47,149 nucleotides of DNA, from assembly GCA_029882515.1 (NCBI GenBank), contig JAOUKN010000002.1, positions 1-47,149 on the forward strand, given 5' to 3'. Positions 17,554-42,999 of this stretch are shown here, piece by piece. How positions within the stretch are numbered: position 1 is the first letter of the stretch; each line of letters starts with the position of its first letter. The DNA comes from Candidatus Bathyarchaeota archaeon. GTDB taxonomy: Archaea; Thermoproteota; Bathyarchaeia; Bathyarchaeales; Bathyarchaeaceae. The translations under genes were made by a program, and so were the position numbers. Below the pieces are notes generated by a model. That model was not told the origin of the DNA, searched no databases, and saw nothing but the letters and a program-made list of their open reading frames with translations.

Positions 17554-17557
17554 GAAT

Positions 17558-18343: not shown

Positions 18344-18390
18344 TGCGTAATGAATTTATTCCTGATGCTTCGTCTTTTAGATGATGTACA

Positions 18391-18636: not shown

Positions 18637-18639
18637 GAA

Positions 18640-19320: not shown

Positions 19321-19344
19321 GAAGAAATCTTGAGGCATTTGAAC

Positions 19345-20809: not shown

Positions 20810-20818
20810 TTGCTTGGT

Positions 20819-22021: not shown

Positions 22022-22287
22022 TCTTCTATCATACGTTTTTTCTCCATTTTCTTTTGGAAGATGAGGAGCCGAAGTTTTAGATTTCTTCTTGAGGGAGTAG
22101 TTTACAAATGTAAAGACTGATATGTGTCATAACAATGTTATGAAATGGTGGCAGAAAGAACTTAAAACATAAAGAATTTAAAACACAAACTCAAATTAAC
22201 TCCTTCCAACGACTGGAATCGAACCAAGCATGCAAGTCTGTAACATTCCCAGAATTTCTCAAACCCAGATTGCTGGAGAAAAATAGT

Positions 22288-25182: not shown

Positions 25183-25183
25183 C

Positions 25184-27676
25184 ATGGTACAAGATTCTCT
25201 TCAAGCTATAGAAGAGATACGAATCGGTGTATTCATCTGTTATTGCGGGCTTAATATCGGCGCTGTAGTAGACGTAGAGGATGTGGCAGATTACGCTCGC
25301 TCTCTGCCGAATGTAGTCTATGTGAAGACCAACCGGTACACATGTGCTGACCCGGGACAAGAAGAGATTAGGAAAGGAATAGCGGAGTACAAGTTAAACC
25401 GAGTGATTGTAGCTGCTTGTTCTCCAAGGATGCACGAGCCAACGTTTCGGCGAACCGTTTCGGAAGCTGGTATGAACCCGTTTCTCTTTGAGATGGCCAA
25501 CATCCGGGAGTTTTCGTCATGGTGTCATCCAAGCACACCAGAAGAGGCCACAAAAAAAGCTAAAGAAATTGTGAAAATGGCTGTTGCAAAGGTTAGATTG
25601 CTACAACCGCTTGACATCATCGAAGTTCCAGTTACCAATGAAGCGTTAGTAGTGGGCGGTGGGGTCGCTGGTGCAAGTGCAGCGTTGGCCCTTGCTGACA
25701 TGGGGTACAAAGTATACTTAGTTGACAAAGCTGAGACCATCGGGGGCCACGTGGCTCAACTGGGCAAAACGTTCCCGATGTTTGAGTGTTCAAACTGTCC
25801 ACAACAGAATCGTTGTCCACGATTCTCGTGTGTTGCTACGAGAGTAGGAGATGTTGCTACGCATCCAAATATCCAGATATTTACTTATTCTGAAGTTAAA
25901 GAGGTTGAAGGTGTTATTGGAAGCTATAAGGTCAAGGTCGTTAAGAACCCGAGATTTGTTATCGAGTCAAAGTGTTTGGGATACTGTAACATTTGTGAAG
26001 AAAAATGCCCTGTTCAAGTGTCAAATGAATTTGACGCACGTGTACATATGCGGAAGGCAATCTACATGCCATTCAACCAAGCTATACCTCTGGTCTACAG
26101 GATTGATAAAGAGAACTGTCTCTACTTCAAGGATGGTAGTTGCACTGAATGTAAAGATGTATGCGAAGCAGGCGCGATAAATTTTGGGCAAACACCCGAA
26201 GAGATCACACTTGAAGTAGGGACTATCGTAATTGCGACTGGATTCGACATTTACGAACCTTATGATTTAAAAGAATATGGATATGGGCAATATAGGAATG
26301 TGATAACTGAACTTGAACTTGAACGAATTTTGAACACGGGCACTCAACTTACAGGCGAACTCTTAAGGCCTTCAGACGGCAAAAAGCCCAACAGCCTAAC
26401 TTTCATTCAGTGTGTTGGTTCACGAGACGTTGACAAGTACGAGTATTGCTCCAGCTTCTGTTGCATGTTAACACTAAAGAACGCGATTTTGCTCAAAGAG
26501 AAGTACGGGGATGACCTACAAATTAATGTGCTTTACATGGATATGCGCACCAACAAGAAAGGGTACGAAGAGATCTTCAGAAGAGCCCAAAATATGGGAA
26601 TCAACTTCATACGAACAAAGCTTACCAATAGAAAGATTACAGAAAACCCGAAAACAAAAAGCTTGACTGTATATGCAGAAACAGAAGGCAACAATTCAGT
26701 GAAGATAACGACTGACATGGTAGTATTAGCAACAGCGGCGATTCCAAGTAAAGGGTCCGAAGACATAGCCAGAATCTTCAACATCTCCCGAGGAGCCGAC
26801 GGCTTCTTTATGGAAAGCCATCCAAAACTTAAGCCCCTCGACACAGCTGTGGATGGCACCTTTCTAGCTGGGGCCTGTCAGGGACCTAAAGACATCCCCT
26901 ACAGTGTGTCACAAGGAAGTGGAGCTGCATCCAGAGCTGCAACAATTCTTTCAAAGTCAACGTGGGAAATCGAACCTATCATTGCTGTTGTTAATCCTGA
27001 TGAATGTAGAAATGTCAAGACGAAGTGTGGCATTTGTTCACAAAGGTGTCCTTATGGTGCCATTAAAGCTCCTGAAGGGCAGCCAGCAGAAGTTGCTACT
27101 GCTATGTGTCATGGATGTGGCACTTGCGTTGCTGAATGTCCAGCTGACGCCATTACTCAAATGCATTTCACTGACGCTCAGATTTTTGCTCAGATCCGGG
27201 CTGCTTTGGAAGAAAATCCTGAGGATAAGATTCTGGCTTTTCTCTGTACCTGGTGTAGTTATGCGGGAGCTGATTTGGCTGGAACAAGTCGTTTCGAGTA
27301 TCCACCTACTATACGTCCCATTCGAGTCATGTGTTCCGGAAGGGTTGATAGAGACTTCGTTATGGAAGCCTTCAGACTTGGCGCAGGAATGGTGCTGGTT
27401 GCTGCTTGCCATTTACCCTATGATTGCCACTACATTTCTGGCAACTGGAAAATGAAAACAAGAATGGAAGCCTTAGCGGGCATGCTGGAAAAACTAGGTC
27501 TTAGCCCAGAAAGGTTCAAAGTGGACTATGTATCTGCCGCCGAAGGCGTCAAATTCGCTGAACTCGTAAACGACATGACAGAACAAATGCACACACTGGG
27601 CAAGGACAAGATAAACACGGAGAACGGAAAATTAAAGCCTATACTGGAAAAAATGCTGTCACGAAAACGAAAGTAG
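25184..27676 (+). CDS. hdrA: HdrA paralog 2 fused to a C-terminal MvhD-like domain
   Basis: 830 aa. HdrA-like throughout the first ~660 aa. The C-terminal ~140 aa (KILAFLCTWCSYAGADLAG ... IRVMCSGRVD ... VAACHLPYDCHY) match the MvhD (methyl-viologen-reducing hydrogenase delta) pattern. Confidence 0.9.
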   Translation: MVQDSLQAIEEIRIGVFICYCGLNIGAVVDVEDVADYARSLPNVVYVKTNRYTCADPGQEEIRKGIAEYKLNRVIVAACSPRMHEPTFRRTVSEAGMNPFLFEMANIREFSSWCHPSTPEEATKKAKEIVKMAVAKVRLLQPLDIIEVPVTNEALVVGGGVAGASAALALADMGYKVYLVDKAETIGGHVAQLGKTFPMFECSNCPQQNRCPRFSCVATRVGDVATHPNIQIFTYSEVKEVEGVIGSYKVKVVKNPRFVIESKCLGYCNICEEKCPVQVSNEFDARVHMRKAIYMPFNQAIPLVYRIDKENCLYFKDGSCTECKDVCEAGAINFGQTPEEITLEVGTIVIATGFDIYEPYDLKEYGYGQYRNVITELELERILNTGTQLTGELLRPSDGKKPNSLTFIQCVGSRDVDKYEYCSSFCCMLTLKNAILLKEKYGDDLQINVLYMDMRTNKKGYEEIFRRAQNMGINFIRTKLTNRKITENPKTKSLTVYAETEGNNSVKITTDMVVLATAAIPSKGSEDIARIFNISRGADGFFMESHPKLKPLDTAVDGTFLAGACQGPKDIPYSVSQGSGAASRAATILSKSTWEIEPIIAVVNPDECRNVKTKCGICSQRCPYGAIKAPEGQPAEVATAMCHGCGTCVAECPADAITQMHFTDAQIFAQIRAALEENPEDKILAFLCTWCSYAGADLAGTSRFEYPPTIRPIRVMCSGRVDRDFVMEAFRLGAGMVLVAACHLPYDCHYISGNWKMKTRMEALAGMLEKLGLSPERFKVDYVSAAEGVKFAELVNDMTEQMHTLGKDKINTENGKLKPILEKMLSRKRK

Positions 27677-29206: not shown

Positions 29207-29995
29207 TTATTTGAGGGCTTTGCGTGCGTGGGTGATGTAGCCCGTGTGCCCGGTCATCAAGGTTTGCGGTCGAGTTTTTCCTCTTTCAATCTGCATGCCA
29301 CGCATAAGACATTCAACAGTTTCAATGGCTACAAACCCGTTTTCTTTTAGGGCTTCAACTGTCTTCACAACCTGATCAATAGTCGGACTGAAGGAGACAA
29401 GTACGCCGCTTCCTTTTAGGGCTGCGTAGGCGTGAGGAATGACCAGCCATGGAGTTGCGAGGTCTAGAACTACTGCGTCGACTTCTGTCTCATCGATGCC
29501 TTCTGTTATGTCTTTGTTCTTGACAGTAACATACTCTGAAACTCCTGCTCTCTTCAGGTTTTTCAGCGCCGACTCCATGAACTTCGTTCTAACTTCGTAG
29601 CTGTACACATGACCTGTGGGGCGGACATGACAGGCGAGAGATGTGGTTAAGGCGCCAGTTCCAGTTCCCGCCTCAACAACTCTGTTGCCTGGACCAGCAT
29701 CGCTGAACATAAGGATGAGAGATATGTCCTTTGGATACGTTATCTGGGTCTTTCTCTGCATCTTAAAAATATGGTCTCGTAACGTGGGTTTCAAGGCTAC
29801 GAATTCTATGTTCATGCTGCTGGCTATGCGAGTCCCGTACTGTTTTCCAACCAACTCTTCTAGTTGCACAAATCCTTTATGTGTGTGGAAACTCTTCTCC
29901 TGCTCAACTTTAACCAGGTAAGTTCTCTTCCGATCTAAGTAGAGAAGAACGTCATTACCTTCGTGGATTTCAGACAAACTGGACTCACACACCAT
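29207..29995 (-). CDS. trmI: tRNA (adenine-N1)-methyltransferase TrmI/Gcd14 family
   Basis: 262 aa with a SAM-binding motif (VVEAGTGTGALT) and the Gcd14-like N-terminal beta domain pattern. Confidence 0.8.
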   Translation of the reverse strand: MVCESSLSEIHEGNDVLLYLDRKRTYLVKVEQEKSFHTHKGFVQLEELVGKQYGTRIASSMNIEFVALKPTLRDHIFKMQRKTQITYPKDISLILMFSDAGPGNRVVEAGTGTGALTTSLACHVRPTGHVYSYEVRTKFMESALKNLKRAGVSEYVTVKNKDITEGIDETEVDAVVLDLATPWLVIPHAYAALKGSGVLVSFSPTIDQVVKTVEALKENGFVAIETVECLMRGMQIERGKTRPQTLMTGHTGYITHARKALK

Positions 29996-30050: not shown

Positions 30051-31544
30051 TTAGGGTTCGTAACGGAACGGATGCCTGGCCGACTCCTTCCTCTCCATGA
30101 GCTCCTCCGAAGTAGGTCTCGCCTCTAACGCCCTACGAATCGCCCAAACCATCGCCTTGAAGTTGTTTATCATCACTCGTTTTGGATTAGACGCAGTCGG
30201 ATGAACAAAGACGTTCGCGATCATAACCAACTCTTCTAAGGCATCTTTAGGCAGCAAACCGTCTTCCACGCTGTCCACAACAGCCTTGGCGACCCCACTC
30301 ATCGCATGCACATACACAAATTCAGCCTGACGCTCAGTTCTAATGGTGACTGTGGGGACCAATAAAGTGTCAGGCTTGACTGTTTTGCTTCCTAATCTTA
30401 CAAGTTGGGGGTCATGACCAGTTCTAGGATTTGCCAAAGTTTCCCGAAACGTCCTACCAACTGGACCATTCCTCAACCCTATGAGAAGATCAACGTGAGC
30501 AACTTCAGCTGTGCTGGGTGATGCAAAGGCTTCGCCAACTTTCAAAGAGAAATCACGTATTTTCATGGGGGTCTGAGGTGTAGCCCCAGCAAACATACTT
30601 TTAGTCACAAGATTCGGCTTAATTTCCAATTGGAGAGTTTTGCTGGAAAGTTTCCCTAACCACTCCAAACTCAATCTAAGTAGCTCTTCATCCTCATAAC
30701 GAAAGACACCCCCAGTCATAAGGGGCTTTCTCGCGGTTCCAACATCCAGCTCCATCATTCTTAATCCAGCTTTGACCGCAAGGCCTCCACCATGCCTAGT
30801 AATAATTCTTGCCAAAGTCTGAACCTTCCTTTGAAGACTACGGGCCTCCTCCAGATCGTGCTTTTCAACCAAGTCGTACAGTCGTAACCAAAGGTCAGGT
30901 ATCAGATTCGCAGAAGCTAATATCAGCCCATCAGCACCGGCGGCAAGTGCAGCCACCGCAATCTCATCATGCCCACAGATAATTGAAATCTTTCCATAAA
31001 CCTTCTCAAATAAAGCCATCATATAAGGCATGTTACCGCTGCTGTCCTTAATCCCAACTATATTATCGATTTCAGATAGGCCTTCCACGACCCACCAAGG
31101 GATCTCAACACCTGTGACCTGTGGAATATTGTAAAGAATGATTGGAAGGTCTGCAGCCTCCGCAATTTTGTCGTAGTGTTCATAGATCTCCTTGTCTGTG
31201 GGCTTGAAGTAGAAAGGCGAGACTACTAGGGCAGCGGTTGCACCTGCATCCTCAGCATGTTTGGTAAACTCTATGGCGTTCGTTGTTCTGGCGTCTCCAG
31301 TTCCAGCAATAACCGGCACCCGACCGTTAACCTCATCTATAGTAACTTCGATAACCTTCATCCTTTCTTCCACGGTCATGTTGACAAATTCGCCTGTTGT
31401 CCCACATGGAACCACTCCAGTGACGCCTTTCTCAATGACAAAATCTACCAGTCGCCTTAAACTCTCCTCATCAACCTCAAAGTTTCTTTCAAATGGTGTT
31501 ACGAGAGCGGGAATCACTCCCTTTAACCAAAATTTCTTCTCCAT
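30051..31544 (-). CDS. Fusion protein: DapA/DHDPS-NAL family class I aldolase plus formaldehyde-activating enzyme (Fae) domain
   Basis: Preferred start ATG 31544 (MEKKFWLKGVIPALVTPF). Aldolase motifs: CGTTGEF, LYNIPQ, VGIKDSSG (Schiff-base Lys context). The C-terminal ~171 aa (about nt 30054-30566) align by eye to Fae: VGEAF...EVAHVDLLIG, KPDTLLVPTVTI, VFVHPTA, ARHPF. Confidence 0.85.
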   Translation of the reverse strand: MEKKFWLKGVIPALVTPFERNFEVDEESLRRLVDFVIEKGVTGVVPCGTTGEFVNMTVEERMKVIEVTIDEVNGRVPVIAGTGDARTTNAIEFTKHAEDAGATAALVVSPFYFKPTDKEIYEHYDKIAEAADLPIILYNIPQVTGVEIPWWVVEGLSEIDNIVGIKDSSGNMPYMMALFEKVYGKISIICGHDEIAVAALAAGADGLILASANLIPDLWLRLYDLVEKHDLEEARSLQRKVQTLARIITRHGGGLAVKAGLRMMELDVGTARKPLMTGGVFRYEDEELLRLSLEWLGKLSSKTLQLEIKPNLVTKSMFAGATPQTPMKIRDFSLKVGEAFASPSTAEVAHVDLLIGLRNGPVGRTFRETLANPRTGHDPQLVRLGSKTVKPDTLLVPTVTIRTERQAEFVYVHAMSGVAKAVVDSVEDGLLPKDALEELVMIANVFVHPTASNPKRVMINNFKAMVWAIRRALEARPTSEELMERKESARHPFRYEP

Positions 31545-31545
31545 C

Positions 31546-33000
31546 CTAACCCCTCCACACTCGGAAAGCGTTTGAAAGAGCGAACTTGACTGCATCGTAA
31601 GTGTTTGTAAACAATATCTGTCTGTTTAGGGCTTCAGGATTAACAACAACCTTAACTATAATTGCATAATTCTCTAAAACTTCCTTTGAAATCACGTTTT
31701 CCTCAACTGTGTCTGAAACTGCCTTTCCAACGGCTGATTGAACTGGGCCGTACACTATGCTCGCTTGCCGTAGACTCTCAATTTTGATTGCTGGAACAAT
31801 AAGCGTAATCGGTTTGGCAGAGAGGTTTGGCTCTAAAATAGCTGTTAGGGCTTCGTGGCCAGGCTCAGGATTTGCTAAGGCTCTTGCCCACACATAACCC
31901 ACTGCACTTTGCTTTGGACCAGCCAGCAGAAAGACGTGCAACTTTTCTCTTCCTTCTCCAACTGAGGCTTCACTTACCAAGAGCTTTGACTGTTCGATGT
32001 CTTTGGCTGTGATCCCCAAATCTTGAAATCTATCCTCTAAGCGTTTTGGGAGTTCGGTTTTGACTTTAATCTGTTTTGCCGTTATTTTTCCAAGTTTTTC
32101 AAGTTCCATCCGTATCTCTTCTTTCACTTCCCATGCCAAAACTCCGCCACTTACCAGTGGTCTCCTTACTTTGCCAACATTAACGCTCATCATCTTTAAG
32201 GCTGCTTTAACGGCTACGGCTCCGCCATGTCTGCAGAAGATTCTTGCCAACTTTTGGGCACTCATCTGGATTTTTCTAGCAGAATCAACATCTCCTTTTT
32301 GAACAGCCTTATACAGTTTGACCCATATATCCGGGATAACATTCGCCGAAGCTAATATTGCTCCTTTGGCTCCAGCTGCTAATGCCGGCAAAACCACTTC
32401 GTCATGACCACAAACAATGGTGATCTTATCTCCAACGAAGCTTAGCAACTCGAGCATGTAGGGAAGGTGTCCACTGCTATCTTTTAGCCCTGTAATGTTG
32501 TCTATCCGAGCCAAGTCTTCGACGACTTCTCTGCTCAGAAATCCACCAGTACACTGCGGAATATTATATAACACGATTGGTATGTCTGCAGCTTTGGTAA
32601 CCTCATAGAAATGTTGATACGCACCTTTGTCTGCCGGACGCAAATAATAAGGGGTGACGACCAAAGTGGCGTCTGCTCCGACATCCTTAGCGTGTCTACA
32701 TAACTCTATTGTTTCTATAGTTGAGCTCGCACCAGTTCCAGCAATCACAGGAACTCTGCCGTTAACCTCATCAATAACCGTCTCCAATGCCCTCTTCCGT
32801 TCTTCTTTTGACATGTAAACAAATTCTCCAGTCGTACCAACGGGTACAACGCCATTTACTTCCCATTCAATCATGAAATTGACTAGATATCTCAAGGCTT
32901 CTTCATCAATTTCCCCTTCATTCTTGAATGGAGTAACTAATGCAGGAAAAATTCCTTCTAAATTGAACCTCTTTATCCTTATCACCACCAGAATAGACAA
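31546..33000 (-). CDS. Paralogous fusion: DapA-family aldolase plus a divergent Fae-like domain
   Basis: 484 aa. Aldolase motifs are intact (VGTTGEF, LYNIPQ, TGLKDSSG). The C-terminal ~147 aa are Fae-like but divergent: LHVFLLAG replaces AHxDLxxG, and there is no terminal HPF motif. One nt separates its stop from the next gene's ATG. Confidence 0.8.
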   Translation of the reverse strand: MSILVVIRIKRFNLEGIFPALVTPFKNEGEIDEEALRYLVNFMIEWEVNGVVPVGTTGEFVYMSKEERKRALETVIDEVNGRVPVIAGTGASSTIETIELCRHAKDVGADATLVVTPYYLRPADKGAYQHFYEVTKAADIPIVLYNIPQCTGGFLSREVVEDLARIDNITGLKDSSGHLPYMLELLSFVGDKITIVCGHDEVVLPALAAGAKGAILASANVIPDIWVKLYKAVQKGDVDSARKIQMSAQKLARIFCRHGGAVAVKAALKMMSVNVGKVRRPLVSGGVLAWEVKEEIRMELEKLGKITAKQIKVKTELPKRLEDRFQDLGITAKDIEQSKLLVSEASVGEGREKLHVFLLAGPKQSAVGYVWARALANPEPGHEALTAILEPNLSAKPITLIVPAIKIESLRQASIVYGPVQSAVGKAVSDTVEENVISKEVLENYAIIVKVVVNPEALNRQILFTNTYDAVKFALSNAFRVWRG

Positions 33001-33220: not shown

Positions 33221-34660
33221 TTGGTGTTATCCATGTCTGTTGAGAAGGGATATGCTCTTGATTGGATTGCGAGAAATAGGGATAAGATTGTTGAGATCAG
33301 TGATAAGGTGTGGGAGCATGCCGAGCTAGGTTTAATCGAGTTCAAGTCTTCAGCGCTTCTAGCAGATGAATTGAAAAAACAGGGGTTTAAGGTTGAACGT
33401 GGAATTGCGGATATGCCTACAGCCTTCTTAGCAACTTGGGGTGCAGGAAAACCAGTCATCGGGATAATGGGCGAATATGATGCCCTACCCGGGCTATCAC
33501 AGAAAAAGGTTCCATCAAACAAAACTTTGCAACCGGGTGCCCCAGGGCACGGATGCGGGCACAATATTCATGGGACCAGCGGCATGGCAGCAGCAATAGC
33601 AGTAAGAATCGCTATGGAGAAACACAAGATAAAGGGTACAATCAGATTCTTTGGATGTCCGGCTGAGGAGAACTTCTCAGGCAAGGTATACATGGTTAGA
33701 GAGGGGTATTTCAGTGACGTTGATGCGGTGATCAGTCATCATCCAAGCACTATGAATGCAGCTGACCTAAGGAGCAGTTTGGCTGTCAACTCGATTAAGT
33801 TTCATTTCTATGGTAAGGCTTCCCATGCCGGTGCTTCCCCCGAGCAAGGCAGAAGCGCATTGGATGCAGTAGAATTAATGAACACAGGTGTAAACTACCT
33901 TAGGGAACACGTAATCCAAGATGCAAGAATCCACTACGTAATTGAAAAGGGCGGAGACCAGCCAAATATTGTGCCCCCATACGCCAGAAGCTGGTACTAC
34001 GTAAGAGCGCCAGAAAGAGATCAATTGGAATTCATATACAATTGGATACTCGAGATAGCAAAAGGAGCAGCAATCATGACAAGAACTAAGGTGAGAACAG
34101 AGTTTCTTGAAGGAAGTTACAATGTAATTCCCAATAAAGCTATCTCAGAGCTAATTGTTAAAAATATGCGTGAAATCGGGCTTCCCGAATATAGTGATGA
34201 AGATTTGAAGTTTGCAAAAGAGATTGCCAAGACAATTACACTAGAAATGAAGATTGCTCAGTTGAAGAAATCTAAGCGCCCAGGATGGGAGAAACTAGTG
34301 GACAAATTGATGGATGATGAAATTCCTGATCCTTGGGGTGAAGGTGAAGTGAGTCATGGTAGCACTGATGTAGCTGACGTGAGTTGGCAGACACCCACTG
34401 TAGAATTTACCACTGCAACTTGGGTTCTAGGTACACCTGGGCATTCATGGCAAAACGTAGCGCAAAGTGCAGTTGGACTTGGACATAATTCTCTCATCTT
34501 TTCTGCGAAGGTAATGGCTGCTACCTCCTTAGATTTCTTGATGAATGAAGAGATTCTTAACGAGGCAAAGAAGGAACATAGACAAAGAGTAGGAAACAAA
34601 AAGTATAGATCACCAATACCCCCTGAAAATAGACCGCCTCTTGACATATGGGAGAAATGA
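33221..34660 (+). CDS. M20 family amidohydrolase (AbgB-like)
   Basis: 479 aa with motifs GIMGEYDALPGL, GHGCGHN, FFGCPAEE and HHPS, typical of the M20D/AbgB-like subfamily. The true start may be ATG 33233. Confidence 0.8.
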   Translation: MVLSMSVEKGYALDWIARNRDKIVEISDKVWEHAELGLIEFKSSALLADELKKQGFKVERGIADMPTAFLATWGAGKPVIGIMGEYDALPGLSQKKVPSNKTLQPGAPGHGCGHNIHGTSGMAAAIAVRIAMEKHKIKGTIRFFGCPAEENFSGKVYMVREGYFSDVDAVISHHPSTMNAADLRSSLAVNSIKFHFYGKASHAGASPEQGRSALDAVELMNTGVNYLREHVIQDARIHYVIEKGGDQPNIVPPYARSWYYVRAPERDQLEFIYNWILEIAKGAAIMTRTKVRTEFLEGSYNVIPNKAISELIVKNMREIGLPEYSDEDLKFAKEIAKTITLEMKIAQLKKSKRPGWEKLVDKLMDDEIPDPWGEGEVSHGSTDVADVSWQTPTVEFTTATWVLGTPGHSWQNVAQSAVGLGHNSLIFSAKVMAATSLDFLMNEEILNEAKKEHRQRVGNKKYRSPIPPENRPPLDIWEK

Positions 34661-34813: not shown

Positions 34814-36097
34814 TTACTTTTTGTGCAGGTTCCAAGCAGCGATGAACGTTAGGCCTCGTTCTGTAAGCGCTTTGGCTGTTCTGTTCAGTGAATCATGTTT
34901 GTCTAGATAATTTGTTAAGAGCTTTGGCATTAACTCTTTTTCAATAATTTCTTCCTTAGGAATGAAGTAGTCCAAAATATCTGATGGGTGTTCTCGAATT
35001 TTTTCAACCTGAGGAAGTCCACCCTCATGTTTGGCACTGATGTTTTTGACATGGTCTGAGATCTTCAGAAGTTCCTCGATTCGGTCGTATGGTTGCCTGA
35101 CAATACTCTTGTAAGTTTCCACAATATGATGTTCGATGCGGATAATGTCTTCGAAGTTGAAGTTCTCTCGTGTATAGGCTGATAGTTCAATTGTTTTGTT
35201 ATTGGCAGAGTTGGAGAGATTGAAGCCAATGAGAGGTGTTGTGCCGTCATCTCGGCTAAAGAGTTTCGCAGTCATGAGAGTCCACAAACATGAATAAGGA
35301 TTATCGTTGCCCACGAAAACCGAAATCTTGAATTCTATGTCAATTCCCAGTTTATGCAGCCAATACCCGAGCATAACAGTGCCTGTGTTTATGTTCAATA
35401 CCTGCTGAACGCCATACTCTGTATGGTAATAAAGAAATTCATCAACCCACTTCAAGGCGTATTCATTTGGTACTCCTACGCCTCCGAAATAGCCTGTGAT
35501 AGTTTCAGGGCCTCCTAAATGAACGTTAATTGGTTGACCATCTGGTCCGAGCATTGTCCCTTTTGTGTCTAGTGTTTGCACGTAAGAGGCTCCGATGATT
35601 TGCATTGCTGCTGCAAACGCAAGGATGTCATCATCTTGAACTTGCTCTTTCATCGAACGGACACGAATATAGCGGGCGGGCATAAGGTCCTGTTGGGTAA
35701 TAGCCTTCTTCGCTTCTTCTATGAGCCATGGGAAAAAGTTGCAGGCACTTATCTCGAGGGTTACGGCGAATGTTTCATCAAACTTTGTAGAATTAGCCTT
35801 GTCTCCTAAAACTCTCTTGAGATATTCCGGGATGTTAATGAAAACGCTTTTGTCTCGTTGTTCAATCAACCATTCGAGGTCTTTCACATAAGGAGAATTT
35901 TTGTCTTTGAGTCGAGTCATGATGTTTTCGAGCTTGCTGGCTTCCTTCGCCTTACGGTTAATTTCGTCAACACCACCGTATTTCTCAACAGATTCTAGTA
36001 GGCCGTTTACAAGGGGGTTGTCTTCGCTTAGAAGAAGATTGTTGATCTCCTTCAGATTTTCTTCTCTGATTCTTAATCTATCTCTGAGACTGCTCAT
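34814..36097 (-). CDS. Hypothetical protein with no recognisable family (427 aa)
   Basis: Long ORF with non-repetitive, enzyme-like composition. It has a helical N-terminal ~100 aa and no TM segments. I could not match any motif. Confidence 0.7.
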   Translation of the reverse strand: MSSLRDRLRIREENLKEINNLLLSEDNPLVNGLLESVEKYGGVDEINRKAKEASKLENIMTRLKDKNSPYVKDLEWLIEQRDKSVFINIPEYLKRVLGDKANSTKFDETFAVTLEISACNFFPWLIEEAKKAITQQDLMPARYIRVRSMKEQVQDDDILAFAAAMQIIGASYVQTLDTKGTMLGPDGQPINVHLGGPETITGYFGGVGVPNEYALKWVDEFLYYHTEYGVQQVLNINTGTVMLGYWLHKLGIDIEFKISVFVGNDNPYSCLWTLMTAKLFSRDDGTTPLIGFNLSNSANNKTIELSAYTRENFNFEDIIRIEHHIVETYKSIVRQPYDRIEELLKISDHVKNISAKHEGGLPQVEKIREHPSDILDYFIPKEEIIEKELMPKLLTNYLDKHDSLNRTAKALTERGLTFIAAWNLHKK

Positions 36098-36464
36098 AGA
36101 TAATCCTCCGAATGTTCGCTATTGCGTTTTGGAAAAATTTAAGCGTTTTCGCTGAGGCATAGAGTGAAGCGTATGCTTCACCAAATGAGAAAAGTTGTGA
36201 GTAACAATAGTTGCTATAATCTTTTCGATTGGAGTTTACTCAAAAAACCAATTATTTCTGGTAGTACTGCAACTATGGGCACTGCTTAGAAATCCGATGT
36301 GGAGAGCCACTTATGGGATCGGGGCATCTTGTGAGCATGCTATGAAAGAGAACTAGGTTAGGAAAACCCATTTAAAGTTCAAGTTCATAATTATCTAGCC
36401 CTTACTGATTGGTGATCATGTTCCTCAATCTGAGATTATTGAAAAGTTGTGCTAATTAGGACGA

Positions 36465-38120
36465 ATGGTGGAAAACATGCCTCCTAAATTAGTTAGGTTC
36501 CTTCTTTCATTTGCAGTCCCCGCAAAGGACCGCAAAAAACGCTTCACAGAGAAGATGGAAAAGGGAGCTATTTTATGCTTTGCAGAGTTAGAGCGGAAGA
36601 AAGGTAAAGGGCGCATTCTGAAAAGAACGACAGAGGAGATAGCCTTTATTGCTCAAGCTTGTTACCCAACGTGGTTGGTTCCATGGAAGAGAGGGACTCT
36701 TATTTTTGACGGACTCGGTATCATGGCACACACCTTTTCTTATGCCACGTTACCCGACGTCAGAACGTTTATCACTAATATTGATGGAGATTCCATGAAT
36801 CATGAAGCGTACCTTGCCTTTCTTTCCAGCAATCTTAACTACTTTCAAGGGTTCACAAGAGAAGAAGGGAAAACCGTAAAAGGTCTTGTTACAAGTCCAG
36901 ATTTTGTCGGAGATTTTGCTTCCTATCTTTCTTCAGCCAAAAAAATCAATGGATCAGCACCAAATAAAATTCTTCTATCTCCAACAATGGATGAAGCAGA
37001 GGCCTCTATTTCCATAAAAGAGATTTCAAGCCTTAGAACAAGGTTAACACAAGATATTGCAGATTTGCATGGAGTCATGCGCTTGCTAAATAGCACTGCA
37101 GAAAGATATGTAAAGAGTTTTGAAAAAGAAATTGGGAAAGTTAGAAAGGAATTTGACAAAAGAATAGAAGTCCTTAAACCTTCAGTTATGAAAAAGATTC
37201 GAAAGATTCAGAAAGAATATGACAAGAAAATATCACTATATTCTGGAGACATAGGGGGTCAGCTCCATCTTCTCCATCAAGAATACATCAAACTTGAGAA
37301 AGAAAAAGAAAGAAAGAGTGAGAACATTAACCGTTGTGAAGTAGAAATAAAGTCCTGTAGGCTTCGCAAAGATGGGGCTGGTGAACTTCGATGGAGACAA
37401 GACATAGAAAATTACAGAAGGGAGATTTCGGCTTTAGACAAGAAACTCAAAGATGTCCAACAAAAAGTAAAGGACACAGAATCGATGAAAAAAGATGAAA
37501 TATCCAAAATCAGAGCAAAGTGTGACAAAGAAGTCGACAAGATCATGGATGACGTGCGGAACGTAGAGGCTTCACGTGATGCCAAGATTCACATAATGCA
37601 GAAAGAAATGGAGTCTCTTCAGGATATGACCTCTCAGGTCGTGGAACAGATCAATAAACTGGTTAAATTGAAGAGGCAAACCATAAGCAATCTTGATCAG
37701 GTTGGTCTGGCTAAAAAACGGAGAACCTATGCCCTAACGTACATACCCTTCTACCTTATCTGCTATCAAGCAGGGCCGAAGAGAAGATACGTCATATATC
37801 CTCCATCCATTGCGGGAAGCATGGGAATTTTGACAAAATTCAAAGGGGTTTTTGGGGTGGCAAAGACAAAGTCCCTTTTGCAGTTTCGTTCAGGGCCCAT
37901 AACCAGTCTCATCAGCCAGATCATAATGTTGTTGGAGAAGAATCCTGTGTTTGAAAAGGAAATGTATGATGCGGGAACTGAATCTAATATTTTGCGCACG
38001 AATGAATTGAAGGAACACTTAAGACAGGGATTGAGAGAATTGAAAGATGAAGGGTGGATCTCAGAAAGCGAGCTTGAAGTGTTCACTGCCCCTCTAGCAA
38101 AAGTTCAGATGAGGCAGTGA
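36465..38120 (+). CDS. Hypothetical coiled-coil protein (551 aa)
   Basis: N-terminal globular part (~160 aa), a Lys/Glu-rich heptad-like central region of about 230 aa (KKIRKIQKEYDKKI ..., KLKDVQQKVKDTESMKKDE ...), and a C-terminal globular part (YIPFYLICYQAGPKRRYVIYPPS ...). No family recognised. Confidence 0.7.
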   Translation: MVENMPPKLVRFLLSFAVPAKDRKKRFTEKMEKGAILCFAELERKKGKGRILKRTTEEIAFIAQACYPTWLVPWKRGTLIFDGLGIMAHTFSYATLPDVRTFITNIDGDSMNHEAYLAFLSSNLNYFQGFTREEGKTVKGLVTSPDFVGDFASYLSSAKKINGSAPNKILLSPTMDEAEASISIKEISSLRTRLTQDIADLHGVMRLLNSTAERYVKSFEKEIGKVRKEFDKRIEVLKPSVMKKIRKIQKEYDKKISLYSGDIGGQLHLLHQEYIKLEKEKERKSENINRCEVEIKSCRLRKDGAGELRWRQDIENYRREISALDKKLKDVQQKVKDTESMKKDEISKIRAKCDKEVDKIMDDVRNVEASRDAKIHIMQKEMESLQDMTSQVVEQINKLVKLKRQTISNLDQVGLAKKRRTYALTYIPFYLICYQAGPKRRYVIYPPSIAGSMGILTKFKGVFGVAKTKSLLQFRSGPITSLISQIIMLLEKNPVFEKEMYDAGTESNILRTNELKEHLRQGLRELKDEGWISESELEVFTAPLAKVQMRQ

Positions 38121-38167: not shown

Positions 38168-39529
38168 CTACAACGCATATTTCTTTCCGTATTCTACCAA
38201 CTGGACGTCTTTGTCTAGTTTTCTGAACAGATGTGGATTTTCTGTGTGTATAGGGAAGATCTTTTTTGGGTGAATGTAGTCAATTAGCTCTATTAGTTGT
38301 TGTCTGTTTAGATGACCAGAAGCGTGGAGCTGGTGAAATTTGATTCTGAAGTGATCTAGCCAGTTCTGCATGATCGTATCTTCTATATCTTCTTCACTAT
38401 ATGGTTCACTCATGCTGTGGATGAAGTGACTATTGAGATCTGGTCTTATGTCGATAAGTTCTGCGAACTGGTAAAAATCCAAATCCATGACAATTTCGCT
38501 TTGATGTTTGTGCACGAACTTGTGATTTACCATTTTTTCCATGAACTCCCGTTCCCAAACGTAATAATCTGCTTCATGGAACTTCCCAGTTTTTTTCCTT
38601 TTATAATAAATTAGAATGTTCTCATCTTTCATGGGATCTGGAAGAAGAAGACGTTTGTCTTGAGTAAGTCTGCTAAGTAGATGGGCAGTTTTCGGAGATA
38701 CGGCGAGTTTTCTGTCGTTGTCTTTAGCGACACTATAAACTGTTCTGAATCTATCTGTGTCCCGTCCGTAGCGGGTAACAAATACTATCTTGTTTGTCTT
38801 GGAGACAATATCGTTGCTCAGTTTCTCTACTTGTACTTCGGAGTAGTTCTTTCTTCTCTCATTCTCAACCATCCTAGTTCCCTCACTTATCATAGCCACT
38901 GGCTCAGATTCACATGCCTTGTCAATGAACTCTTCTGTCATATCCTTGCGAGGTCCATGAGCTCGAAGGTCTCCAGTGTACACGATTGCGCCTTTCGAAG
39001 TGTGAACTATGAAACCATAGGAAGCGGGAATAGAATGGTCAACATGAATAGGGACTATAACTACGTGTTCAATTCGTATTTTGTCTCCTGTTCTGAATGT
39101 TTTGTACGGATGTTTTCCAAAATTGGTGGTGCTGGTGGATTCCATTGATTCAATGAATATTTTCGTTCCGTAACCGCAATAAACCGTAATTTTTTCGTCA
39201 AGGAATGGAATGTGTCCTATGTGATCTACGTGGGCATGAGATAGAAACACGGCGTCAACCTTCGGTTGAGTGTAGGGAAGGTCTGTGAACGCCAATTGTT
39301 CCTTGCTATATATTCCCTTTATTCTTGGAAGTAAGTTGAACTCAAAGTAGTCTCCTAAGCCATTTACTGCTCTGGGTGTAAGCCATCTTGTGAAATAATC
39401 TGTGCCTGAAGTGAAAGACCGCCCAAAGTCTAGAAAGATTCTGACTCCTTTGTCTTCTAGGAGAACCTTGTTTCCTCCAATCTCATTTAGTCCACCATAA
39501 AATGTAAGCGTCGTCTCATGCTTTGTCAT
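38168..39529 (-). CDS. MBL-fold beta-CASP ribonuclease, archaeal RNase J-like
   Basis: 453 aa. N-terminus LTFYGGLNEIGGNKVLLE, HxHxDH motif (LSHAHVDHIGH), and later His/Asp motifs. The size matches archaeal RNase J. Confidence 0.75.
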   Translation of the reverse strand: MTKHETTLTFYGGLNEIGGNKVLLEDKGVRIFLDFGRSFTSGTDYFTRWLTPRAVNGLGDYFEFNLLPRIKGIYSKEQLAFTDLPYTQPKVDAVFLSHAHVDHIGHIPFLDEKITVYCGYGTKIFIESMESTSTTNFGKHPYKTFRTGDKIRIEHVVIVPIHVDHSIPASYGFIVHTSKGAIVYTGDLRAHGPRKDMTEEFIDKACESEPVAMISEGTRMVENERRKNYSEVQVEKLSNDIVSKTNKIVFVTRYGRDTDRFRTVYSVAKDNDRKLAVSPKTAHLLSRLTQDKRLLLPDPMKDENILIYYKRKKTGKFHEADYYVWEREFMEKMVNHKFVHKHQSEIVMDLDFYQFAELIDIRPDLNSHFIHSMSEPYSEEDIEDTIMQNWLDHFRIKFHQLHASGHLNRQQLIELIDYIHPKKIFPIHTENPHLFRKLDKDVQLVEYGKKYAL

Positions 39530-41301: not shown

Positions 41302-42999
41302 CTAATCGCGCACGTTTCTGCAAAGGTTAGAAATAGCCAGAATAATATGTGGTGGCGTAAAAATACTAAAAACTTTGGTATACTTGGGAGAACCCGCATC
41401 CCTCACAGTTTCTTCTTTCCCGCCTCCTTCTAAGTATCCTTCAATGAACTTTCGTACTATGAACTCTACCCCTTTAGTAGAAGAGAACGGAAATGCGTAA
41501 TGGCCGGAGTAATAGAGGAATTCAGCTATGTCCCACGCTTGATTTCCATCTCTTGATGCTTGTTCAAGATCCACAAAATAGAGACCTTTTTCATCTGTAA
41601 CTAGAATGTTCTCGGGTTTGCAGTCTCCAAAGGTGATTCCTAATCTATGGGCTTCAGCGATTTTCTTTCCCACTTCCTTAACTAAAGCAATACCCTCTGG
41701 TGCCTGCCTGCTATTGGATGAAATAATCCGTTTAATATCGTGAACTAAAGTTTCTCCTTTAATGTATTCTTCGAAGATTAAACCTTCTCCTGGGCTTACA
41801 TAAAGAATCTTGGGAACGAGAAACCCTTTTTTGCTCAAGAACTGGTTGATGGAATATTCTCTTTCTAATCTTGACTGCCCAAGAACTGCGAAGGCCTTTG
41901 TCCCCATTGCCCATAATGCAAGTGGAAACCATTTGAACCCGTGCCAATCTTTGAACTTCTTCACTACAATTCTTTGCTCTTCTCCGCCTTTTCGGAGTCT
42001 AAGGTAATAGACATCATTTAGAACACCTCCGGTCTTCTCCACCGTCACGTCTAAAGCTCTTCCATCCGGAACAGTTTTTCTAACGAACTCTTCGATGGTA
42101 GTCTCGTCTGAGAGTGCTACTAGCCCTAAAGGTGTTGATATTAACAGGTATTTCTCAGGTTCTTCCAACTGAGCACTCAGATCGTCGACTTCAACCTCTT
42201 GGTGTGTCTTCCTGAAAATCTCCTCTTCTCTTGTGAAGGGAACTGTCATTTTTGGGAAAACACTTAGAAGATTGGCGAGTGCTGCCTTTTGGAGGGATTT
42301 GAGGAAGGTTGGGATTCGAAGCTTTTGTGTTTTTATAGTTTTGATGAAGTTTGGAGTGATTTTGATATATTTATTGGAGAAGGTTATCTGATCCTCCTCT
42401 GCTAATTCTTTGAGTGCTCGCAGGTATCCTTTCATGGTTGATTCTATGGTTTTGGTTTTTACCGCATTATCTAGCATGTTAAGATAACTGTAAGCTATAG
42501 GTGGGAATAGTCGTGCTCTTTGCTTCATGGCTTTGTACATAAAATATTCTGCTTTGATGAGAAACTCGTGGGACAACTCAGGATATTCCAAAACCATGTT
42601 TTTCAAAAGTTCTTGAATTATTCGTTTCTTCATCTTGACTTCCTTTTGCCATAAATATTCATTATTTTCAAATGATTGGTAAGGAATAGTGATCTTGTCC
42701 GCAACAAACTCGCCTAGCCATCCCTGTTCCACATCACGTTCGAAGGCACGCTTATCAACCACTAAAACCAAGATACTTGTTTCACCCAATGACTTTTGGT
42801 AGCTTTTTAATCTAAGCCGGAAATCCTTTAGGACAAGCAAAATATTTGCGTGATCTTTGTGGTTGGTATCTCTACATATTTGCGAACCATAAAAGCACGC
42901 GGCAACTATTTCTCGGGTACCGGCAATACGCCTACAAATGTCTGAGACCTTTTCTTCGAGTTCTTCACATGAAGTCTGAATCCTTGTTCCCAACCACAT
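41302..42999 (-). CDS. Fusion of a degenerate nucleotidyltransferase-like N-terminal domain with an atypical (RIO/Bud32/Kdo-kinase-like) protein kinase domain
   Basis: 565 aa. The N-terminus has FYGS...KDHANILLVL where minimal NTases carry GS...DxD. The C-terminus has RIVVKKFK (ATP-binding Lys context), FGDCKPENILV (catalytic loop) and YFVDLEQA (metal-binding Asp). Confidence 0.7.
   Translation of the reverse strand: MWLGTRIQTSCEELEEKVSDICRRIAGTREIVAACFYGSQICRDTNHKDHANILLVLKDFRLRLKSYQKSLGETSILVLVVDKRAFERDVEQGWLGEFVADKITIPYQSFENNEYLWQKEVKMKKRIIQELLKNMVLEYPELSHEFLIKAEYFMYKAMKQRARLFPPIAYSYLNMLDNAVKTKTIESTMKGYLRALKELAEEDQITFSNKYIKITPNFIKTIKTQKLRIPTFLKSLQKAALANLLSVFPKMTVPFTREEEIFRKTHQEVEVDDLSAQLEEPEKYLLISTPLGLVALSDETTIEEFVRKTVPDGRALDVTVEKTGGVLNDVYYLRLRKGGEEQRIVVKKFKDWHGFKWFPLALWAMGTKAFAVLGQSRLEREYSINQFLSKKGFLVPKILYVSPGEGLIFEEYIKGETLVHDIKRIISSNSRQAPEGIALVKEVGKKIAEAHRLGITFGDCKPENILVTDEKGLYFVDLEQASRDGNQAWDIAEFLYYSGHYAFPFSSTKGVEFIVRKFIEGYLEGGGKEETVRDAGSPKYTKVFSIFTPPHIILAISNLCRNVRD

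Follow-up and report, generated by a model that had tools for sequence, protein, structure and literature searches.

A divergent gene pair in a Bathyarchaeia genome encodes a predicted orphan TIM-barrel enzyme with one-carbon and 2-oxo acid enzymes as genomic partners, and a predicted lineage-specific coiled-coil rod

In the window analysed here, a 47,149-nt stretch of DNA from a Candidatus Bathyarchaeota archaeon, two large genes are transcribed outward from a common spacer, and the question that they raise is whether their products are partners in one system and what each of them does. A first-pass annotation, made from the letters alone, had singled out the pair and quoted three motifs from the two proteins, which it could assign to no family. 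The open reading frames and the spacer are present where that annotation placed them (Table 1), and all three motifs occur in the translations. Judged by their relatives, of which there are more than 8000 for the 427-aa protein (X427) and 154 for the 551-aa protein (CC551), both are genes and not chance frames. The absence of a family assignment also held, as neither protein has a match at curated cut-offs in Pfam, NCBIfam or the PDB sequences. The spacer matched no Rfam family and gave no consensus promoter or terminator match in a scan limited to bacterial-type consensus motifs.

Table 1 Features of the divergent locus and its flanking genes (window coordinates).
Feature	Coordinates	Strand	Basis
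TrmI (GCD14-type tRNA methyltransferase) gene	29207..29995	-	Pfam
Two tandem DapA-Fae fusion genes (30051-31595, 31546-33000)	30051..33000	-	Pfam DHDPS + Fae
M20-family peptidase/amidohydrolase gene, between fusion genes and X427	33221..34660	+	Pfam
X427 gene (427 aa, orphan, predicted TIM-barrel enzyme)	34814..36097	-	ORF list, full-length relatives, model
X427 residues 106-427, predicted (beta/alpha)8 barrel	34817..35782	-	Model, alignment, fold searches
X427 residues 181-210, conserved Gly-rich loop GGPETITGYFGGVG after strand 3	35468..35557	-	Model, conservation
X427 residues 1-105, predicted N-terminal helical bundle	35783..36097	-	Model secondary structure, conservation
Spacer between divergent X427 and CC551 genes, 367 nt	36098..36464	.	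Rfam, promoter and terminator scans
CC551 gene (551 aa, predicted coiled-coil hairpin protein)	36465..38120	+	ORF list, relatives, model
CC551 residues 1-176, predicted N-terminal alpha/beta half-head	36465..36992	+	Model, alignment, charge
CC551 residues 177-411, predicted antiparallel coiled-coil hairpin (helices 177-300, 304-411)	36993..37697	+	Model, alignment
CC551 residues 412-551, predicted C-terminal beta + helical half-head	37698..38117	+	Model, alignment, charge
Metallo-beta-lactamase/RMMBL (RNase-like) gene	38168..39529	-	Pfam
Kdo/WaaP-like kinase-fold gene, backbone member	41302..42999	-	Pfam

Synteny of the two genes

The first-pass annotation had implied that the two genes form a pair and had named conserved synteny as the test, which the pairing fails. 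The CC551 gene adjoins X427 in none of 80 genome loci centred on X427. When loci were centred on CC551, X427 adjoined it in one of 30 genome loci, solely that of the window's own genome, and in two of 65 metagenome loci (those with at least 1000 nt of upstream flank), both of which belong to the closest relatives (69-70% identity). Genome-wide co-occurrence was likewise not found: CC551 is present in 14 of 23 X427 carriers vs. 53 of 178 non-carriers, 53 of the 67 class genomes with a CC551 gene have no X427 gene, and in all ten other genomes that strongly match both, the genes lie on separate contigs. Nor is the pair restricted to Asgard archaea or related lineages, as had been considered, since X427 spans both domains and CC551 is essentially confined to Bathyarchaeia. 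Taken together with the readings of the two proteins set out below, it is fairly probable that X427 and CC551 are independent genes, made neighbours by an accident of genome architecture; here, adjacency and divergent orientation in a single genome gave no sign of partnership.

Gene order around the two families suggests how the adjacency could have arisen. TrmI is the usual divergent neighbour of CC551 (first upstream gene in 33 of 65 loci) and the metallo-beta-lactamase (MBL) gene its usual convergent neighbour (first downstream gene in 35 of 52 loci); neither arrangement is co-transcribed with CC551. The kinase-fold gene is found in 40 of 80 CC551 loci and 12 of 80 X427 loci, while TrmI, near X427 in 29 of 80 loci, also flanks the module of DapA-Fae and X427. 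The X427 loci of Bathyarchaeia have the order TrmI<, DapA-Fae<, X427>, ..., MBL<, kinase<, and three CC551 loci carry DapA-Fae with no X427 between TrmI and CC551. These orders are consistent with a common Bathyarchaeia backbone of TrmI, CC551, the MBL-type RNase-like gene and the kinase-like gene, in which a module of DapA-Fae and X427 would, in some lineages, take up the position adjoining TrmI. In the window's genus, the two fusion genes, the M20 hydrolase gene and X427 appear to have been inserted between TrmI and CC551, a placement through which X427 would have ended up divergent from CC551; the order of these events is read from gene orders and not from a dated tree.

Distribution and predicted fold of X427

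Members of the X427 family are spread over both domains, in at least 593 species genomes, and their identity of 60-84% is as high as that usually seen for core enzymes; carriers include Bathyarchaeia, Asgard archaea and Thermoplasmatales as well as four or more bacterial phyla. All 120 relatives among the matches listed cover at least 95% of its length, and mean column identity is 70% in an alignment of 46 sequences from both domains. In Pfam nothing matched at E up to 1, NCBIfam gave no match either, and a profile built from the 46 sequences failed to match any PDB chain up to an E of 10. No recognisable nucleotide-binding or pterin-binding family emerged from the Pfam and NCBIfam searches, and the labels carried by family members are 'hypothetical protein' only.

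The first-pass description of X427 as enzyme-like, with a helical N-terminal region and a Gly-rich core, was borne out by structure prediction. The model (pLDDT 91.2, pTM 0.90) contains eight beta/alpha units, with strands at residues 112-117, 142-145, 171-175, 232-234, 255-258, 289-293, 320-326 and 353-357 and a helix after each of them, and all top structural matches are TIM barrels. The helical bundle that precedes the barrel is the least conserved part of the protein, with a mean column conservation of 0.59 vs. 0.74-0.76 elsewhere. Invariant or near-invariant polar residues (E115, R145, R147, D177, N235, N237, K257, D265, N293, R320, E322, H324, K356, H357 and E358) sit on or just past the barrel strands, and E115, D177, E322, H324, H357 and E358 among them are candidates for a divalent-metal site of the class II aldolase kind (His/His/His or Glu, at the C-terminal face of the barrel). 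The Gly-rich motif falls in the conserved loop of residues 181-210, the sole low-confidence part of the model (pLDDT 53-54), which may serve as a mobile lid or as a phosphate or cofactor loop. Structural matches are to generic TIM barrels, with Foldseek E values of ~1e-4 and TM scores of 0.3-0.45, and a search with VIA, an aligner independent of Foldseek, returned Z scores from 11.8 down to 10.1 over 50 unrelated rows. Together these predictions mark X427 as an orphan enzyme, without a solved or curated relative, in which a helical bundle precedes a (beta/alpha)8 barrel.

Genomic partners of X427 and candidate reactions

In 38 of 80 loci a DapA-Fae fusion is encoded no more than 6 kb from X427, and 21 of the 23 X427-carrying genomes have one; 36 of the 57 fusion-bearing class genomes are without X427, so the fusion does not need it. 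PanB is encoded directly upstream of X427 and co-directionally in nine loci from three bacterial phyla, and in two Loki-type loci a DHDPS-like aldolase gene overlaps X427 from upstream. In 13 Thor-type loci no aldolase stands beside X427, and an ECF-type S component is found upstream instead. Beside X427, the M20 gene was seen solely in the window and a single close relative, and in none of the 80 X427 genome loci. The recurrent partners of X427 are C1-pterin:2-oxoacid hydroxymethyl-transfer enzymes, namely DapA-Fae, an extra PanB and the DHDPS-like aldolase.

From these partners we infer that X427 most likely makes or consumes a 4-hydroxy-2-oxo acid, such as 4-hydroxy-2-oxobutanoate, the product class common to DapA-Fae and PanB. 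It would act together with enzymes for the transfer of a pterin-bound one-carbon unit to or from a 2-oxo acid (DapA-Fae with H4MPT in archaea, the extra PanB with folate in bacteria), in a catabolic or a biosynthetic direction, and its own chemistry would be acid-base or metal-based, at the conserved Glu/Asp/His/Lys/Arg residues of the predicted barrel. One possible assignment, which we put forward tentatively and well short of conviction, is that X427 supplies the third enzyme, so far missing, of a widespread natural route linking 4-hydroxy-2-oxobutanoate with pyruvate and a pterin-bound one-carbon unit, using H4MPT and DapA-Fae in Bathyarchaeia and Asgard archaea, and folate and a dedicated PanB paralogue in Chloroflexota, Thermotogota and Bipolaricaulota. 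Among the matches listed in a literature search, this chemistry occurred in engineered pathways only. If true, the route would couple the carbon of amino acids directly with the Wood-Ljungdahl C1 pool in some of the most abundant subsurface microbes.

The keto acid of homoserine is 4-hydroxy-2-oxobutanoate. As an alternative, the same enzymes could run towards biosynthesis: X427 with DapA-Fae, or with the extra PanB, would convert pyruvate and pterin C1 through 4-hydroxy-2-oxobutanoate to homoserine, threonine and methionine, replacing the aspartate-semialdehyde pathway in carriers. Within the window's order, homoserine dehydrogenase (HSDH) was found in one of 12 X427 carriers vs. 36 of 39 non-carriers and aspartate-semialdehyde dehydrogenase (ASADH) in none of seven vs. 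five of five; each of 14 control genomes encodes the two enzymes. One genome has HSDH, the fusion and X427 side by side. This complementarity, attractive as it was, vanished once a neutral control gene was run: the unrelated HisG splits alike (0 of 10 carriers vs. 22 of 24 non-carriers), which marks the carriers as broadly auxotrophic and leaves the lack of HSDH and ASADH too unspecific to serve as pathway logic. ThrC-type genes above cut-off are kept in four of 10 carriers but fall under it in the other six, canonical ThrB is uninformative (0 of 5 vs. 1 of 5), HSDH is kept in two of three bacterial PanB-X427 genomes tested, and related genomes are non-independent data points. We regard a homoserine pathway of this kind as unlikely.

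The PanB-linked loci also invite a role for X427 in the synthesis of pantoate and coenzyme A, for instance as a ketopantoate reductase of non-Rossmann type that follows PanB. Besides the nine upstream PanB genes, this would fit the finding of no more than weak ApbA/PanE-type matches (E ~1e-10) in three PanB-X427 genomes, the presence of PanB in seven of 10 carriers vs. one of 24 non-carriers in the window's order, and the vitamin-type S component of the Thor-type loci; the PanB co-occurrence may, however, be the same lineage effect as that seen for HisG. X427 itself has no Pfam or NCBIfam match to PanE/ApbA (PF02558) and is predicted to be a TIM barrel and not a Rossmann fold, although an analogous activity could still reside in it, and it shows no recognisable nucleotide-binding family. 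Three small genomes whose X427-linked PanB is their sole copy are all without PanC, while in two Anaerolineae genomes the linked PanB is a second copy, apart from a complete panB-panE-panC cluster elsewhere. A pantoate role would also leave the far commoner pairing with the Fae-fused pyruvate-type aldolase unexplained, and we consider it improbable.

Besides a keto acid, the one thing common to DapA-Fae and PanB is methylene-pterin, and X427 could instead be a pterin-binding barrel that makes, reduces or transfers a methylene or methyl group for Fae and PanB. Several pterin enzymes are TIM barrels, and C1 genes occur nearby in single loci, with a formate-THF ligase in one and a homocysteine S-methyltransferase in another. 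A folate-binding barrel (3ijd, Z 10.1) is among the tied structural rows, but it matches no better than 49 unrelated barrels, and X427 matches no pterin-binding family. Identity of 60-70% between the X427 proteins of H4MPT-using archaea and folate-using bacteria also fits poorly with recognition of two pterins, which makes a pterin-binding function quite improbable.

Turnover of a 4-hydroxy-2-oxo acid is the role that we prefer for X427. A wide, conserved family tied to C1 and 2-oxo acid enzymes points to an undescribed reaction of carbon metabolism. The organisms concerned, Bathyarchaeia, Asgard archaea and anaerobic Chloroflexota, are dominant in anoxic sediments, and naming the reaction would close a gap in the metabolic models of these microbes.

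CC551, X427 and their nearest described systems

CC551 has 154 relatives at 40-76% identity, 120 of them among the matches listed, and was found in 67 of 201 class genomes and in six genomes of the phylum outside the class; it is near-universal in one Bathyarchaeia order. At curated cut-offs it matches no Pfam family, NCBIfam family or PDB sequence, and sub-threshold matches are coiled-coil noise only. Among the 120 listed cluster representatives, three are source-named 'predicted nucleic acid-binding Zn-ribbon protein' and one 'archaellum component FlaC'.

The layout proposed for CC551 in the first-pass annotation, with globular N- and C-terminal parts that may form one head and a Lys/Glu-rich coiled coil between them, agrees with the predicted model (pLDDT 86.7). 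There, a head assembled from both termini is carried on a long coiled-coil hairpin of ~235 residues, which turns at the conserved K302-D303; each arm of ~120 residues would measure roughly 18 nm by standard helical rise. The motifs quoted from the two ends are indeed conserved, containing the invariant residues Y67, P68, W70 (a YPxW motif), Y430, Y442 and P447. The protein as a whole is basic (pI 9.5), as are both halves of the head (pI 9.4 for residues 1-176 and 9.7 for residues 412-551), and it has no transmembrane segment. The model and the charge describe a soluble, basic rod that would have no enzymatic activity. Judging by its outline, charge and gene neighbours, CC551 is most likely a structural or tethering protein whose head binds a polyanion, such as nucleic acid, or a partner; as a lineage-specific rod, it matters less broadly than X427.

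With full-length queries, the structural matches of CC551 are all coiled-coil noise that covers helices only, at Z scores of at most 12.2, within the noise for long helices. The top rows are arm fragments of SMC and Smc5/6 and hairpins of ESCRT-III/PspA. With SMC/Rad50-type proteins CC551 shares, in the model, an antiparallel hairpin that unites both termini, and this likeness raises the alternative that it is a scaffold for the chromosome or DNA repair, an ATPase-less rod acting alongside Nre, a PCNA-binding repair factor. NreA is presented in PMC4929162 as a PCNA-dependent repair factor of undescribed biochemistry. The basic head would suit such a scaffold, and an Nre gene lies 33-111 nt upstream of CC551 and co-directional with it in seven of 30 genome loci; these seven come from related genomes, however, and Nre stands beside CC551 in just one of 80 metagenome loci, where commoner neighbours are RNA-related (TrmI and the RMMBL RNase-like gene). 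CC551 furthermore lacks an SMC ATPase head, with no SMC_N or AAA Pfam match and no Walker motifs, and scores 14 bits against TIGR02169 (cut-off 729) over the coiled coil at residues 216-400 only. Its apex is a three-residue turn (301-303) without a hinge or CxxC zinc hook, and a nearby pair of Cys residues seven apart is not invariant, being Ser, Tyr or Ala in several of 34 aligned relatives. Inspection of the C terminus by eye showed no PIP-type motif. A scaffold acting with Nre is doubtful.

Other coiled-coil systems differ from the CC551 rod as well. ESCRT-III/PspA/Vipp1 proteins have no globular alpha/beta head, whereas the head regions of CC551 comprise 176 and 140 residues; no Snf7 or PspA Pfam match was found, and the hairpin-only matches (Z 11-12) are within noise for long helices. 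In comparison with COG1579/HP0958-like zinc-ribbon proteins, the CC551 translation contains no CxxC pair and no zinc ribbon, and 3na7_A aligns over helices only (Z 11.7, rmsd 9.8).

For X427, the best Foldseek rows are class II (metal-dependent) aldolases (3q94, 5u7s, 1rvg and 6ofu; E 1e-4 to 5e-4), which include FBP aldolase, tagatose-bisphosphate aldolase and YdjI (PF01116) and have the TIM-barrel fold in common with the X427 model. The conserved strand His/Glu/Asp/Lys residues of X427 could serve to coordinate a metal and to enolise a keto acid, and its gene context is one of aldol chemistry. However, TM scores are only 0.31-0.45, the PF01116 profile gives no sequence match at E up to 1, and the aldolase 1rv8_A (VIA Z 10.2, between 11.8 for the top row and 10.1 for rank 50) is tied with dozens of unrelated barrels. 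Unlike these aldolases, X427 carries the extra 105-residue helical bundle and the long Gly-rich loop. GlmE (glutamate mutase), KamD (lysine 5,6-aminomutase) and Kce/BKACE resemble X427 in adding helical elements to a barrel, and all act on small amino or keto acids. Among them, 1cb7_B aligns to model residues 26-417 (Z 11.3, 252 residues), 9q1a_C is Foldseek rank 13 and Kce chains reach Z 10.5-11.0, but these scores are tied with unrelated barrels and X427 has no sequence match to these families. In the loci examined, the neighbours of X427 include no recurrent gene for a B12-binding protein or a small subunit.

The nearest described systems to the X427 module are PanB and the archaeal Fae-Hps fusion, in which an aldolase-type enzyme likewise exchanges a pterin-bound C1 unit with a carbon acceptor, and PanB itself is the operon partner of X427 in bacteria. 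The PanB beside X427, however, is an extra or pantothenate-independent copy, and the Fae domain of the module is fused to a DapA-type aldolase and not to Hps. X427 is neither PanB nor Fae-Hps, but an unnamed third component.

Gene content and the adjacency of X427 and CC551

Source names on close relatives assign the window to a Bathyarchaeia genome. Both open reading frames were found where the first-pass annotation had placed them, diverging from a 367-nt spacer, and both are genuine genes (X427, encoding 427 aa, and CC551, encoding 551 aa). The protein collection contains more than 8000 relatives of X427 (79–100% identity among the 120 matches listed) and 154 of CC551 (40–76% among the 120 matches listed). 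The proposal that neither belongs to a curated family was upheld by sequence searches of Pfam, NCBIfam, and the PDB. X427 has no Pfam match at E values up to 1, a single meaningless NCBIfam match (E 0.13), and no matching PDB chain, either with the single sequence or, at E values up to 10, with a 46-sequence profile; CC551 returned sub-threshold coiled-coil noise alone from the same three databases. In the protein atlas, the similarity of X427 to unrelated small clusters (0.83–0.84) is noise, and the N-terminal head of CC551 reaches unnamed Bathyarchaeota clusters only (0.91). A promoter and terminator scan of the spacer gave no match, with a bacterial consensus that is uninformative for archaea.

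Coordinates of features in the window and at other loci
Feature	Location	Strand	Remarks
TldD/PmbA-family metallopeptidase genes	window, 9836-12690		tandem pair
tRNA	window, 15025-15099		sole match in the Rfam scan of the window
Hydrogenase maturation set	window, 15262-21865 and 22270-27676		HypF, HypB, HypA, HypD, HypE; ranges include the electron-bifurcation-type genes that follow
DapA-Fae genes (aldolase-Fae fusions)	window, 30051-33000		two in tandem, ~50 nt overlap
Second DapA-Fae gene	window, 31546-33000		covers Fae profile positions 2-138 of 159 only
M20-family amidohydrolase gene	window, 33221-34660		between the DapA-Fae genes and X427
X427	window, 34814-36097	-	427 aa
CC551	window, 36465-38120	+	551 aa
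Metallo-beta-lactamase gene (MBL)	window, 38168-39529		453 aa, with RMMBL RNA-specificity domain; RNase J/CPSF-like
Homoserine dehydrogenase gene adjoining DapA-Fae	G163:C3:13138-16686		class genome; X427 adjacent as well
Homoserine dehydrogenase gene adjoining DapA-Fae	G135:C8:518030-520186		class genome; fusion frameshifted
X427, then Fe-alcohol dehydrogenase and aldehyde:ferredoxin oxidoreductase genes	L075 (Acidobacteria), 5959-10160	all on the same strand
Threonine-synthase-like PLP enzyme gene	L046 (Thor-type), 3737-5230		two genes upstream of X427; likewise at six other Thor-type loci

The hydrogenase maturation set is followed by genes of electron-bifurcation type, namely a polyferredoxin, two HdrA-like flavoproteins, and an MvhD (FlpD) fusion; no hydrogenase large subunit is encoded among the annotated ORFs of the window.

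The reading of X427 and CC551 as a pair is refuted, since both synteny and co-occurrence fail. When all window proteins were searched by tblastn against 80 genome loci around X427 relatives, CC551 was found at none of them, and among 30 class (Bathyarchaeia) genomes X427 lies near a CC551 relative only in the window's own genome. In metagenomes, the single CC551 protein as query recovered no relative and the CC551 alignment recovered 80 loci, 65 of which have at least 1000 nt of upstream sequence. X427 is the upstream gene in two of these 65, which carry the closest CC551 relatives (69–70% identity), and one of the two repeats the M20/X427 order of the window. The 201 class genomes of a fixed sample include 23 with X427 and 67 with CC551; X427 is absent from 53 of the 67 CC551 genomes and CC551 from 9 of the 23 X427 genomes. 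Ten other genomes have strong matches to both genes, on different contigs.

The gene orders suggest how the two came to be adjacent here. The tRNA methyltransferase gene trmI is the first recognizable gene upstream of CC551 in 33 of 65 loci, divergent and at a median gap of 192 nt, and the RNase-like MBL gene with its RMMBL domain is the first downstream in 35 of 52, a conserved convergent neighbor at a median gap of 67 nt that is followed by a Kdo-kinase-like gene. Together, TrmI and MBL define an RNA-processing neighborhood for CC551. At Bathyarchaeia X427 loci the order is TrmI< DapA-Fae< X427> membrane protein< ... MBL< kinase<, and three CC551 loci have DapA-Fae without X427 between TrmI and CC551. 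These orders indicate that the slot between TrmI and MBL holds CC551, a DapA-Fae/X427 module, or both. The window holds both (TrmI, two DapA-Fae genes, M20, X427, CC551, MBL), and the apparent divergent pair would be the junction of a metabolic module with a backbone gene. Tandem DapA-Fae pairs are also found in three other genomes (G015, G057, and G051), with a single copy at most other Bathyarchaeia loci. The M20 gene is present at none of the 80 X427 genome loci and is retained in the closest metagenomic relative (L112).

Host range and genomic partners of X427

A genome scan confirmed 593 of 600 candidate stretches, which places X427 in at least 593 species, at 60–84% identity. The named archaeal hosts include Bathyarchaeia, Asgard archaea of the Thor, Heimdall, and Loki types, and Thermoplasmatales, and the named bacterial hosts include Chloroflexota, Thermotogae, Bipolaricaulota, and Acidobacteria. 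Further relatives carry the labels Deltaproteobacteria, cyanobacteria, and Euryarchaeota, all as "hypothetical protein", and a search with a divergent relative (P0251) recovered no annotated family member. Among 1.84 billion cluster representatives, X427 has 505 matches that form few full-length clusters at 50% identity, indicating a tight family. Several of these representatives (P0253, P0256, P0258, P0259, and P0310) come from high-GC organisms as frameshifted translations, in which Arg/Pro/Ala-rich segments stand where conserved blocks would be; the family therefore also extends to high-GC bacteria absent from the 80 loci.

In a quick tree, from which fragment rows P0242, P0243, P0246, and P0269 were omitted, 14 of 15 bacterial sequences group together with an SH-aLRT support of 99, while the sequence from Acidobacteria clusters with the Loki-type pair; internal branches are short. 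This topology fits strong constraint with few transfers, not recent spread. One sequence, from a locus labelled Thermoplasmatales (L054), has a long branch (0.67) and falls among the Bathyarchaeia, a placement that could reflect gene transfer or a mis-binned contig.

To identify partners, the ORFs of the 80 X427 loci were clustered de novo and then annotated with Pfam. DapA-Fae lies within 6 kb of X427 in 38 of the 80; most Bathyarchaeia have the two genes divergent, and Heimdall-type loci have the fusion immediately downstream of X427 on the same strand. Within the class sample, the fusion occurs in 21 of 23 genomes with X427 (19 full length, two split or frameshifted) and in 36 of 178 without it. 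A predicted complex of X427 and DapA-Fae scored 0.00 against a mark of 0.32, which is neutral on binding. No paper in the literature library searched refers to the fusion as DapA-Fae, Fae-DapA, Fae-DHDPS, or DHDPS-Fae.

Other lineages show different partners. A PanB gene (PF02548, E 4e-109) is immediately upstream of X427 on the same strand at nine loci from Bipolaricaulota, Thermotogae, and Chloroflexota. Two Anaerolineae genomes encode a panB-panE-panC cluster elsewhere in addition to the X427-linked copy, and three small genomes have the X427-linked PanB only and no PanC, so that the bacterial PanB linked to X427 is not the pantothenate enzyme. A DHDPS-family gene overlaps the X427 start at two Loki-type loci, and an ECF riboflavin-type S component is encoded upstream at 11 Thor-type loci. 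Seryl-tRNA synthetase is found nearby at 13 loci, mostly of one lineage. Minor neighbors include aldehyde:ferredoxin oxidoreductase (four loci), glutamine synthetase (four loci), Fe-alcohol dehydrogenase, an aminotransferase, a beta-eliminating lyase, formate-THF ligase, and homocysteine S-methyltransferase. Aldehyde:ferredoxin oxidoreductase genes flank X427 in L002, L011, and L057 as well as in the Acidobacteria locus listed in the table, which may point to production or consumption of an aldehyde close to X427. The threonine-synthase-like enzyme of the Thor-type loci (497 aa) ends in a fused PadR winged-helix domain, and ThrC-type matches in Bathyarchaeia genomes with X427 are of similar length (478–499 aa).

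A putative role for X427

By the established chemistry of PanB, Fae, and DapA-type aldolases, what PanB and DapA-Fae have in common is moving a pterin-bound hydroxymethyl unit onto a 2-oxo acid or off it. From this shared chemistry we infer that X427 handles a 4-hydroxy-2-oxo acid; a pterin is the less likely substrate.

The gene content of carriers (genomes with X427) at first pointed to replacement of the homoserine route by one from pyruvate and a C1 unit. Among the 51 genomes from the window's order, X427 and the fusion occur together without exception (12 of 12), and homoserine dehydrogenase is found in one of these 12 carriers versus 36 of the 39 others; similarly, aspartate-semialdehyde dehydrogenase is found in none of seven carriers versus five of five non-carriers. 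The reading was downgraded after a control with the unrelated histidine gene HisG, which showed the same split as homoserine dehydrogenase (0/10 carriers versus 22/24 non-carriers). Carriers thus form an ecotype with broad auxotrophy, which makes the anticorrelation with homoserine dehydrogenase unspecific. The presence of ThrC above cut-off in just four of ten carriers also counts against replacement, and the canonical homoserine kinase ThrB (TIGR00191) does not discriminate (above cut-off in 0/5 carriers and 1/5 non-carriers). For a route from pyruvate and formaldehyde to 4-hydroxy-2-oxobutanoate and homoserine, the titles returned by the literature search were from synthetic biology only.

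A second candidate, which makes DapA-Fae the H4MPT counterpart of PanB and predicts that the two are complementary in distribution, was rejected because PanB co-occurs with carriers (7/10 versus 1/24 non-carriers), an association that may be a lineage effect too. In this peptide-scavenging type of organism, a catabolic or salvage role of the pathway would be no less likely than biosynthesis.

Predicted structures and comparison with known systems

The AlphaFold2 model of X427, built from a 46-sequence alignment (pLDDT 91.2, pTM 0.90), consists of a helical bundle (residues 1–105) and an eight-stranded beta/alpha barrel (106–427). Foldseek returned weak generic barrels (E 1e-4 to 1e-3, TM 0.3–0.45), including DAHP synthase, lysine 5,6-aminomutase, psicose epimerase, and a U32 peptidase, and an aligner independent of Foldseek gave a flat list in which 50 rows, from many unrelated barrel superfamilies, span Z 11.8 to 10.1. 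X427 is accordingly a TIM barrel to which no solved structure is close. Polar residues that are invariant or nearly so are located on the strands or just after them (E115, R145/R147, D177, N235/N237, K257, D265, N293, R320/E322/H324, and K356/H357/E358), a pattern that would fit an acid-base or metal-dependent barrel enzyme. The Gly-rich motif noted in the first-pass annotation is present and highly conserved; it lies within loop 181–210, the sole low-confidence part of the model. X427 is an unnamed, orphan enzyme family.

Of the 51 genomes in the window's order, 46 encode CC551. The protein diverges fast, falling to 20–30% identity within the class. A profile search found it in six genomes of the phylum outside the class, one full length and three with the N-terminal motif alone in ORFs of 554–579 aa. 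An Nre gene lies 33–111 nt upstream, co-directional, at seven of 30 genome loci, farther away at two more, and upstream at only one of the 80 metagenome loci. PMC4929162 describes NreA as a PCNA-binding repair factor whose activity is not known.

The AlphaFold2 model of CC551 (34 sequences, pLDDT 86.7) contains an alpha/beta N-terminal region (1–176), an antiparallel hairpin of two helices of ~120 residues each (177–300 and 304–411), and a beta-plus-helical C-terminal region (412–551), so that the head is assembled from both termini, as had been suspected from the sequence. CC551 is basic over its whole length (pI 9.5, with 9.4 and 9.7 for the two halves of the head) and lacks a membrane segment, its 19-residue hydropathy peaking at 1.12. 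These properties suggest a lineage-specific, rod-shaped protein with a basic head and a structural or tethering role.

X427 looks like an enolising barrel enzyme, but sequence tests of membership do not place it among the class II aldolases, and by structure class II FBP aldolases are among the weak generic Foldseek barrels. Searches with the whole CC551 model matched coiled-coil fragments only, from SMC and Smc5/6 arms, ESCRT-III/PspA hairpins, and HP0958, all inside long-helix noise (Foldseek E >=1.5e-3, Z <=12.2). Neither the CC551 sequence itself, nor Pfam or NCBIfam searches, nor the 34-sequence alignment revealed ATPase motifs, a hinge, a zinc hook, or a zinc ribbon, and the likeness of CC551 to SMC and Rad50 proteins is one of layout only.
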